The position numbers and the translations under genes are program-made. From positions 177,940,001 through 178,004,000 of the forward strand of contig OZ024741.1 of assembly GCA_964016885.1 (NCBI GenBank): a stretch of DNA of 64,000 bases. The letters are read 5' to 3'. Below are positions 36,579 through 38,907 of the stretch, in pieces; position 1 is the stretch's first letter, and every line of letters starts with the position of its first letter. The notes beneath the pieces are model-generated. The model was not told the origin of the DNA and did not search any database. It saw only the letters and a list, made by a program, of their open reading frames with translations. This DNA comes from Eledone cirrhosa (lineage: Eukaryota).

Positions 36579-36840
36579 TATATAAATATATATATATATA
36601 TATATATATATATATATATATATATATATATATATATATATATATATATATATATATATATATATATATATATATATATATATATATATATATATATATA
36701 TATTAGAAAGTGAGGTTTTTTTTACAAAATGAAAAATAACCGAGGTGTCCTACACGAGTGAAAGTATAAAGAAAAAGAGATGAAATCGAAAATGCAACTG
36801 AAGTCTTACTTTTTTTTAAAATATATATATTTATTTGGTT

Positions 36841-36878
36841 CCTTTACCGGTTTCGCAGTTCTTCTGCTTTTCAAAAGG
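36841..36878 (-). ncRNA. Minimal hammerhead motif with U3-A8 core
   Basis: Minus strand CCTT-TTGAAAA-GCAG aagaa CTGC-GAAA-CCGG-TA-AAGG. Confidence 0.8.
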
Positions 36879-36922
36879 TGAGTTGAGATGGAGGGTCTGT
36901 GGTTTTTCTCACATCTCACGAT

Positions 36923-37198
36923 GTTCATCCCACATCACCAGTTCTGCTTACTAAAAGTGGCCCACTTGGCACCGTGCATTCGTCGCCTAGACGGCCGCCG
37001 CCTCCGATCGGGAGAGAGGGCGGCCCGTTTCGCCCGTTCCGAGTTCGAGAGTAGATCGAGGCCGTCAACGTCCCTGGGGCCTCCAGTCGTTCGCTTTACC
37101 GGACGGAATTGCGTGTCGTTCTGTCTGCTGCTGGCGCCAGCTATCCTGAGGGAAACTTCGGAGGGAACCAGCTACTAGACGGCTCGATTGGTCTTTCG
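36923..37198 (-). pseudogene. 28S rRNA fragment (retroposed pseudogene)
   Basis: Minus strand begins CGAAAGACCAATCGAGCCGTCTAGTAGCTGGTTCCCTCCGAAGTTTCCCTCAGGATAGC and ends GTGCCAAGTGGGCCACTTTTAGTAAGCAGAACTGGTGATGTGGGATGAAC, both conserved eukaryotic LSU blocks. Confidence 0.93.
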
Positions 37199-38907
37199 TG
37201 AGAAAAACCACAGACCCTCCATCTCAACTCACCTTTTGAAAAGCAGAAGAACTGCAAAACCGGTAAAGGAAGCAAATAAATATACATATTTAAAAAAAAA
37301 ATAAGACTTCAGTTGCATTTTCGATTTCATCTCTTTTTCTTTATATATATATATATATATATATATTTGTGTGTTTTTGATGGTAGCTAAGATGCTTCCA
37401 TAGGCAGTATGCTGGTTGAGCACTCTATTTTCTTACAGAGCAGCGTGTGATGTAATTTAAAACGGAAAATCAGTGATGCATCTGAACTCAATTTATTGTG
37501 TGTTACAATTGTTTCGCCGGCAGACAGCTTGAGACACGATCATTGTATGGATCTGCAGGTTCATCGGACACTTCCAATGACTTCGGATCAACTTTTCTTA
37601 CTGGGGTGTTACCGTCAAAAAAACATCCCCCTCTTCGATTGTCCTGCTATTGGCTGTTGTTTTTCTATGTCATCATACATTTTGATCAACAGGTACTGTC
37701 AAACTGACCATCAGCTGTCCTTTTTTTCTGCCACACTTCAATGAATCCCTGCTGTGTTTGGTAGTTCACACGTCCACGCGCGCACTCACATATATATATA
37801 TATATATATATATACACACTCACACACACGCAGACAATCATATAAATAACAACATCCGTACGCATATACATACGCTATACATACGCACCTAAAGAGAACC
37901 CATAACGCTATAGACATACGCGTCCACAGACGCCGCCTACATGCCCACGTACATCAACTCCCACGCACACGCACACAGGCGCACACACATGCATACACGT
38001 ATAACTACTCGTATACACGTACATACATATATATAGACACGCACATGCACATACACACACGTGTCCATATATACAGGCACAAAAACAGACTCGCTCGTAA
38101 ACACACATATATATGTATATATATATAGGAACGAGTAGGACCCCGACGGCTGAGCTCAAGCCGTTTCGACGGCTAATTCTGGACTAAATGAACATGTTTA
38201 TCCTGGTATATGAATAGCCGAGCTTCTCAGGGGGTAATTCCATATATGGAAAAAGTGATTGTCACAAGGATTGGTCAAAAGTTTGTTGTTGAGACACATA
38301 ATTCTATCATGGCAATTTGTGGAAGGAAGGGGTAGCTGAACCTGCCAGTAGAAGAAAGAGGGAGAAGGAGGGGAGGAAACCCAGCCGTACGTTGATAGTG
38401 CAAACCACAGCAGGATCTTCGGGGCAGCAGGTGAAGAAAGTATACTAGGCAGGGGGAGGAGGAGGAAGTAGAAACAGTAAGTAAATCAATATGGAGTAAA
38501 TATATAGAAGAATAATAAGAATGTTAAAATATAAAAAACAATTTCTTGATACTATTCCATTACCACCATCATCAAATCTCTCACTGGTACTGCTAAACTA
38601 TAGAGAAGTTTACTAGGTGTGTTGGAATTATAGTGAGAGAATTTTATGAGTTAGTAGTAATCCACCGAGTCTATCTCACAGTAATGGGTCAACAAGTAGG
38701 GGGCCAAAATACTAAAGAAACTACTACGAAATAATAATTCAGAGTCCCGAAACTAATACGAGATAATAATTCAGAATCCCGAAAAAGAAAACTAATACTA
38801 TATATAAGGGTGCCGCTACGATACAAAAATGCTAATACAAACTACATAGATGCTCGTACGATATATATGAAAAATTTGATACGGACAAATAATTTAGAAT
38901 CCCCCCC

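Follow-up and report, generated by a model that had tools for sequence, protein, structure and literature searches.

The genome of Eledone cirrhosa carries fragments of ribosomal RNA joined to Penelope-like elements (PLEs), and this PLE version of the RNA/retroelement chimera is real, recurrent and new; its LINE-1 analogue, inverted pLTRs, tails, hammerheads and trans-mobilised genes are known. The rRNA was likely captured as RNA in the course of target-primed reverse transcription, at the point where a pLTR RNA has its 5′ end. The chimeras extend RNA chimera formation from LINEs to PLEs and address two questions, what the PLE hammerhead does and how the inverted pLTRs arise; their main value would lie in indirect in vivo evidence on the hammerhead and on the formation of the inverted arm.

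A 28S rRNA fragment at the apex of a PLE fold-back

The window is a stretch of 64,000 nucleotides of contig OZ024741.1 (assembly GCA_964016885.1, positions 177,940,001 to 178,004,000), in which a sequence-only reading had recognised a piece of 28S rRNA between inverted PLE arms. The piece is real: two inverted arms of 148 nt (36765–36912 and 37198–37345, identity 143/148) enclose a 276-bp 28S rRNA fragment in minus-strand sense (36923–37198) that matches Rfam LSU_rRNA_eukarya (RF02543) with E 6.3e-26 and is identical to the host rDNA units at 271/276 positions. The match surfaced in a local E-value scan; Rfam at gathering thresholds gave no matches across the whole window. The order proposed for the minus strand (inverted pLTR, sense 28S, pLTR with U3-A8 hammerhead, tail) is borne out, and runs from the inverted arm through the 28S fragment, a 6-nt filler and the bases AGAT to the sense arm with its U3-A8 hammerhead motif and a 60-nt tail, which is present on one arm only. 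Both ends of the fold-back are embedded in (TA)n. The features are as follows.

36578..36704, no strand: (TA)n target repeat, left
36705..36764, minus: PLE 3′ tail, unit positions 149–208, on this arm only
36765..36912, minus: sense pLTR arm, unit positions 1–148; its first 23 nt have 8,834 exact genome matches
36841..36878, minus: minimal hammerhead of the U3-A8 type (predicted), stem III palindromic; cleavage predicted between 36845 and 36844
36913..36916, minus: AGAT, belonging to the element, at the predicted transcription start; TATAAAA lies 30 nt upstream in longer copies
36917..36922, minus: 6-nt junction filler, which generates the TCTCAC duplication
36923..37198, minus: 28S rRNA fragment, 276 bp (Rfam RF02543; 271/276 to host rDNA)
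37198..37345, plus: inverted pLTR arm, unit positions 1–148; 1 nt common with the rRNA start
37346..37366, no strand: (TA)n target repeat, right

One nucleotide is common to the rRNA and the inverted arm, and the last two rRNA nucleotides match the arm end. The TCTCAC duplication noted previously is present (36907–36912 and 36914–36919), but both copies lie on the same side of the cargo and it is thus a one-sided filler, not a target-site duplication (TSD); similar fillers occur at the cargo-free apices of L042, L045 and L096. A TSD of the cargo's own, as a later insertion of the 28S piece would leave, was looked for around the window cargo and is absent, the shared bases amounting to 1 nt on one side and 2 nt on the other. 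The fold-back also lacks a direct pLTR pair, so that the rRNA occupies the head-to-head apex and not, as had been suggested, the place of the ORF. The supposed coding PLE at 38 kb, to which the layout had been likened, is itself a 3.5-kb fold-back with long arms (window 38125–41665), and its ORF piece has no Pfam match.

The divergence of the cargo from rDNA (5/276, 1.8%) matches the per-arm divergence (1.7%; 5/148 between the two arms), an equality that a single event would predict. Fold-backs and (TA)n are difficult to assemble and the junction is known here from the assembly, but a sequencing or assembly chimera is highly improbable, as five cargo sites differ from rDNA and five sites differ between the arms, older examples of such joins are 76–95% identical to rDNA, and in several families the junctions fall repeatedly at defined positions.

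The PLE families and their fold-backs

Exact matches to a 23-mer from the window arm number 8,834 across the 3.0-Gb genome, and the first 100 matches listed include 18 head-to-head pairs of the family. Longer copies extend upstream into the end of an ORF with a GIY-YIG domain; in L085 this domain (Pfam, E 2.8e-7) is C-terminal, lies upstream of the 3′ pLTR and has two cysteines between the GIY and YIG positions. With this ORF end of its own, the window family is, judged by its sequence, a separate EN+ PLE family. The 23-kb element, labelled Neptune-like in the sequence-only reading, to which the arms and tail had been assigned, is indeed related (75% over 65 nt and 72% over 122 nt), but these identities mark it as a sister family and not the parent of the fold-back. 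An N-terminal ORF piece of the window family (L206) resembles the ORF of the 19–22 kb element.

The 3′ ends of window-family copies form two clusters, one of 101 copies at unit position 148 and one of 147 copies at position 208. One tailed and one short arm are combined in 94 of 102 fold-backs. The apex lies at unit position 1 in 28 fold-backs, cargo-free hairpins with that apex being common. The commonest apex, which is the predicted transcription start, is preceded at a distance of 30 nt by a TATAAAA box in longer copies. The sister family has the same spacing from the TATA box to a TCAGTT motif, a sequence of the initiator type. The target is AT-rich, (TA)n flanking the fold-backs of the window family.

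Several related structures were also observed. The window contains a near-perfect 191-nt hairpin with a 5-nt loop (13626–14012) and a short hairpin related to the 38-kb family (36390–36500). L070 bears a 396-aa frame (802–1989) within the spacer between two window-family arms, and the frame is suggestive of the C-terminus of a non-LTR element with a restriction-like endonuclease. L105 has 32 nt of unassigned sequence between the 5′ end of its arm and (TA)n, and L273 is a fold-back whose spacer is a sister-family pLTR copy.

Recurrence of rRNA joins in the genome

Six further rRNA segments were queried, with about 40 candidates scored in most searches and most of the partial matches fetched. 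All queries came from mature rRNA, so that the absence of spacer cargo is by design; the intergenic-spacer search scored 10 of 176 candidates. Among 99 classified rDNA-matching loci, which include whole rDNA units and satellites, 13 have an 18S or 28S fragment joined to the 5′ end of a repeat that is a PLE or PLE-like (window, L058, L123, L124, L132, L149, L161, L170, L172, L173, L175, L181 and L185). The family of L124 and L185 is PLE-like by structure only, and L161 carries the PLE tail only. The cargos, from both 18S and 28S, are approximately 100–640 nt long and 76–100% identical to rDNA, and the repeats to which they are joined belong to at least five families; the rRNA 3′ end differs in all thirteen joins. 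An rRNA hairpin with no recognised PLE (L169) was left out of the count, and single matches alongside L183 and L061 were set aside as microsatellite matches.

The scatter of the rRNA ends argues that the elements do not target rDNA. A family that inserts into rDNA and takes flanking rDNA by read-through would have a precedent in the spike-moss PLEs targeting 28S (PMC8557442), and other 28S pieces in this genome do start at shared sites (L142, L144, L145 and L147). Such flank transduction is nevertheless most improbable here: the arm was found in 0 of 14 other rDNA loci, the cargo 3′ ends are dispersed over 18S and 28S, the PLE part is 5′-truncated at RNA ends, and the target of the family is (TA)n.

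A cargo-blind search for the junction pattern (a start at the cut site preceded by non-native bases) returned 20 matches at 18 places. Two of these have a foreign cargo at the cut site, and both cargos are rRNA (28S, 26 nt, in L209; 18S, 18 nt, in L213), and in L206 the element's own ORF sequence is joined there. The remaining places are self-hairpins, deletions, point variants or truncations. We note that L206/L207 as well as L201, L203 and L216 have own ORF sequence or truncated upstream pLTR pieces directly at the predicted cut. The varied cargo that had been anticipated, such as spliced mRNA, was not seen: the cargos derive from 18S, from 28S or from the ORF of the element itself, and no mRNA was identified among the joins examined.

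At the start-site apex, rRNA was present in 0 of 90 loci examined (from 100 listed of 169 matches), two flags being matches to A/T runs, and rRNA capture at this apex is rare. The window's junction was found in none of the other 34 loci fetched from 28S matches. Each chimera is single-copy in the searches made, with no amplified family. A PLE join is absent from 86 of the 99 rDNA-matching loci, which indicates that rDNA is also dispersed by other means. Since SINE-like and other repeats have rRNA pieces joined to them in some cases, rRNA capture is not specific to PLEs here.

Joins at the predicted hammerhead cut and start sites

The predicted hammerhead of the window family is a minimal U3-A8 motif (36841–36878, minus strand: CCTT-TTGAAAA-GCAG/CTGC-GAAA-CCGG-TA|AAGG) that sits in the pLTR, sense to the ORF; the U3-A8 variant is described in PMC4209133. 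Stems I and II form in its minimum-free-energy fold, with a z-score of -0.97 that is not significant as a monomer, and the monomer folds of two hammerheads were no more stable than shuffles. The core of the hammerhead of the 38-kb family (L173) is atypical, and an Rfam search found no ribozyme family beside L183, L185, L170 or L105.

Junction position was scored for ten joins with context from intact family copies, and six of these (L123, L132, L149, L173, L175 and L181) lie within 1 nt of the predicted hammerhead cut. L123 and L181, as well as L213, are blunt at the predicted cut, and only these are blunt and exact; L149 and L173 share one base and L132 four bases at this position, and L175 fits with a 1-nt offset. 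Three joins (window, L058 and L172) fall at predicted start sites, and L170 is joined 3–4 nt downstream of the predicted cut of its family. The probability of 6/10 joins at the cut is 2e-9 under a uniform 208-nt null, or 0.006 if 20% of ends were there anyway; without the 38-kb family, given its atypical hammerhead core, 5/8 joins are at the predicted cut.

Joins at the predicted cut would be in vivo evidence of PLE hammerhead cleavage, and copies that start there with foreign RNA would show that the cleaved RNA is both made and copied in vivo. For PAc, PMC11167929 reports no RNA-seq reads at the hammerhead site and describes hammerhead cleavage as dispensable in vitro. The capture of rRNA during PLE integration, as proposed from the window, is well supported and recurrent across several families. 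The specific route then favoured, a template switch by the reverse transcriptase (RT), fits the window copy, but most other joins are at the predicted cut, where RNA ligation fits equally. The ribozyme-flanked cassette is not a general layout, the ribozyme being lost in joins at the predicted hammerhead cut.

Polarity, arms and order of events

The cargo marks strand polarity in an otherwise symmetric hairpin, which makes snap-back and two-strand priming distinguishable. The rRNA 3′ end faces the PLE 5′ end in all seven cases in which polarity is defined (one-sided P = 0.008); in L161, L173 and L181 it is defined by a single arm. The inverted arm copies the rRNA end, as the reverse complement of its last 3–12 nt, in L132, L149, L175 and L185, which indicates that joining of the cargo preceded synthesis of the second arm. 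No credible case of a join to the inverted arm alone was found among the joins examined. The hairpin tip lies inside the rRNA in L161, L173 and L209, and L181 has no second arm, so that a hairpin is not required for capture.

These features bear on a later origin of the cargo, in which a cargo-free fold-back formed first and the tip of its cruciform subsequently broke and was patched by repair with rDNA or rRNA-derived DNA. Cargo-free hairpins with the same apex point are common (28 have it at unit position 1), 1–2 nt microhomologies and a filler are present in the window copy, and many dispersed rDNA pieces occur without any PLE, all of which such patching would accommodate. It is nonetheless unlikely, since the second PLE arm is absent in L181, L173 and L161, the inverted arms of L132, L149, L175 and L185 include the rRNA end, polarity runs one way in 7/7 cases, and the ages of cargo and arms agree.

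Diagnostic sites agree between the arms in 49/50, 64/66 and 42/43 pairs, compared with 28, 44 and 28 expected, and these common alleles indicate that both arms came from one molecule or source, or were later homogenised. The polarity of the window copy rests on its tail, and the tail lies on the opposite, inverted arm in L058, L172 and L213. Among 15 long hairpins, the tailed arm is longer in seven and the tail-less arm in six, with one equal and one unscored. We rejected pure snap-back from tail-first cDNA as the only route, as either arm can be longer; the presence of the tail on either arm, together with the greater length of either arm, is an outcome that simple snap-back would not produce. 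Priming on each of the two target strands, with two start sites, would fit better, and PMC11167929 describes cleavage and extension of both target strands by PAc in vitro, with two RT start sites.

A model for rRNA capture

We suggest that (TA)n is nicked by the PLE protein, which then reverse-transcribes a short pLTR RNA from either of two fixed starts, at unit positions 148 or 208; the 5′ end of this RNA would be the transcription start or the hammerhead cut. It is at this 5′ end that an rRNA fragment would be added. In the window copy the probable route is a template jump as the RT reaches the 5′ end of the transcript; in cut-site copies it would be either a jump or an earlier RtcB-type ligation, in which the 5′-OH cleavage product is joined to an rRNA fragment that ends in a cyclic phosphate. 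For the window copy, the predicted capped end and the filler tip the balance modestly towards the jump. The chemistry of the hammerhead 5′-OH end would suit RtcB ligation, whereas that of a capped start would not. The second arm would derive from the same template molecule or source, probably primed from the opposite strand of the target, and 0–3 nt of microhomology would link the two halves head to head, each chimera being a rare dead-end by-product.

In its fullest form, to which we give slightly less than even weight, the model would have PLE hammerheads cleave in the germ line, RtcB join the 5′-OH product to cyclic-phosphate rRNA, and a PLE dimer copy the chimera from both target strands. 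Were germ-line cleavage and ligation true, the chimeras would preserve, as genomic fossils, both ribozyme cleavage in vivo and the points at which rRNA broke, and the origin of the inverted pLTR and of the one-sided tail would be explained.

Other rRNA-derived sequences

The host rDNA unit (L086–L089) is approximately 19.5 kb, with a long 18S of 2.86–2.88 kb, a 28S of approximately 6.1 kb and spacer subrepeats of approximately 700 bp, and whole units are dispersed on several contigs. Four dispersed 28S pieces (L142, L144, L145 and L147) start within 5 nt of one 28S position with non-rDNA sequence upstream; we take this common start to be the R2 insertion site, and the pieces are probable R2-type 3′ ends with flanking rDNA. 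Two further pieces (L143 and L154, with L155 nearby) share one start approximately 120 nt upstream of that site and a common non-rDNA flank, and possibly reflect a second rDNA-targeting element. A large tandem satellite (L153, L157; G000:C6, ~51.00–51.26 Mb) has a unit of approximately 70 bp from 28S that is 84–96% identical to rDNA.

An abundant SINE-like repeat, with a window copy near 35740, has rRNA at its 5′ end in L133, L187, L163 and L195, in sense in the first two and head to head in the last two. In L158, L159, L183 and L186, rRNA is joined to other repeats, three at the same start of one unassigned family and one inside another repeat; L158 and L159 have the same 28S end point. The 18S fragments of L181, L183 and L186, with three different partners, end within 2 nt of each other (simulated P 0.006 per segment, post hoc), and in L185 and L213 the 18S 3′ end falls at the same base with different partner elements. 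The common 18S end points give a hint of a preferred rRNA break site. The 28S of this genome has the H88 break motif of incirrate octopuses, as described in PMC13321053; none of the fragments examined ends at this motif, the H88 segment lying outside the queried segments.

Comparison with known systems

The closest analogues are the chimeras of LINE-1. The 28S/LINE-1 chimeras of PMC13174262 have a median of 269 nt and are 83% sense (n = 18); RtcB ligation was shown for U6/LINE-1 chimeric insertions in PMC6789731, and these two sources propose RtcB ligation or template switching for both types. As in the 28S/LINE-1 case, a few-hundred-nucleotide rRNA fragment is located at the 5′ end of a truncated retroelement (PMC13174262), and as in the U6/L1 type the cellular RNA is in sense at the element's 5′ end, here in 7/7 polarity-defined cases. 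With regard to a single insertion, (TA)n masks any TSD here; the matching divergences and the arms that copy the junction speak in favour of one event. Unlike the LINE-1 chimeras, the partner is a Penelope-like element, 18S is captured too, the joins peak at the predicted ribozyme cut and the predicted start site, and a second, inverted arm closes the insertion, in a (TA)n target.

The word 'Penelope' occurs 0 times in PMC13174262, and 'rRNA' 0 times in PMC3846280, and PMC8557442 names 28S as an insertion target. In the literature searched (titles and abstract openings, with subscription journals thinly covered and supplements outside), we found no description of PLE-rRNA chimeras and none of genomic PLE copies that start at the hammerhead cut.

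PMC8557442 and PMC3846280 describe PLE insertions with partial-tandem or inverted pLTRs and an optional tail, and the present fold-backs share with these the head-to-head inverted pLTR, the tail on one end, the microsatellite target, the pLTR hammerhead and the C-terminal GIY-YIG domain. They differ in having foreign RNA at the apex. In Adineta vaga, according to PMC3846280, an intron-containing host gene was mobilised in trans between two direct pLTRs, with a TSD, and host sequence was similarly moved within pLTR ends. Here, by contrast, a short rRNA fragment lies at the 5′ end of one pLTR RNA.

SINE28 is a non-autonomous rRNA-derived retroposed sequence that forms an amplified family. The chimeras resemble the non-LTR retrozymes (10.64898/2026.07.22.740005) in being non-autonomous, hammerhead-associated retroposed sequences; unlike these retrozymes and SINE28, which are amplified families, they are single-copy in the searches made.
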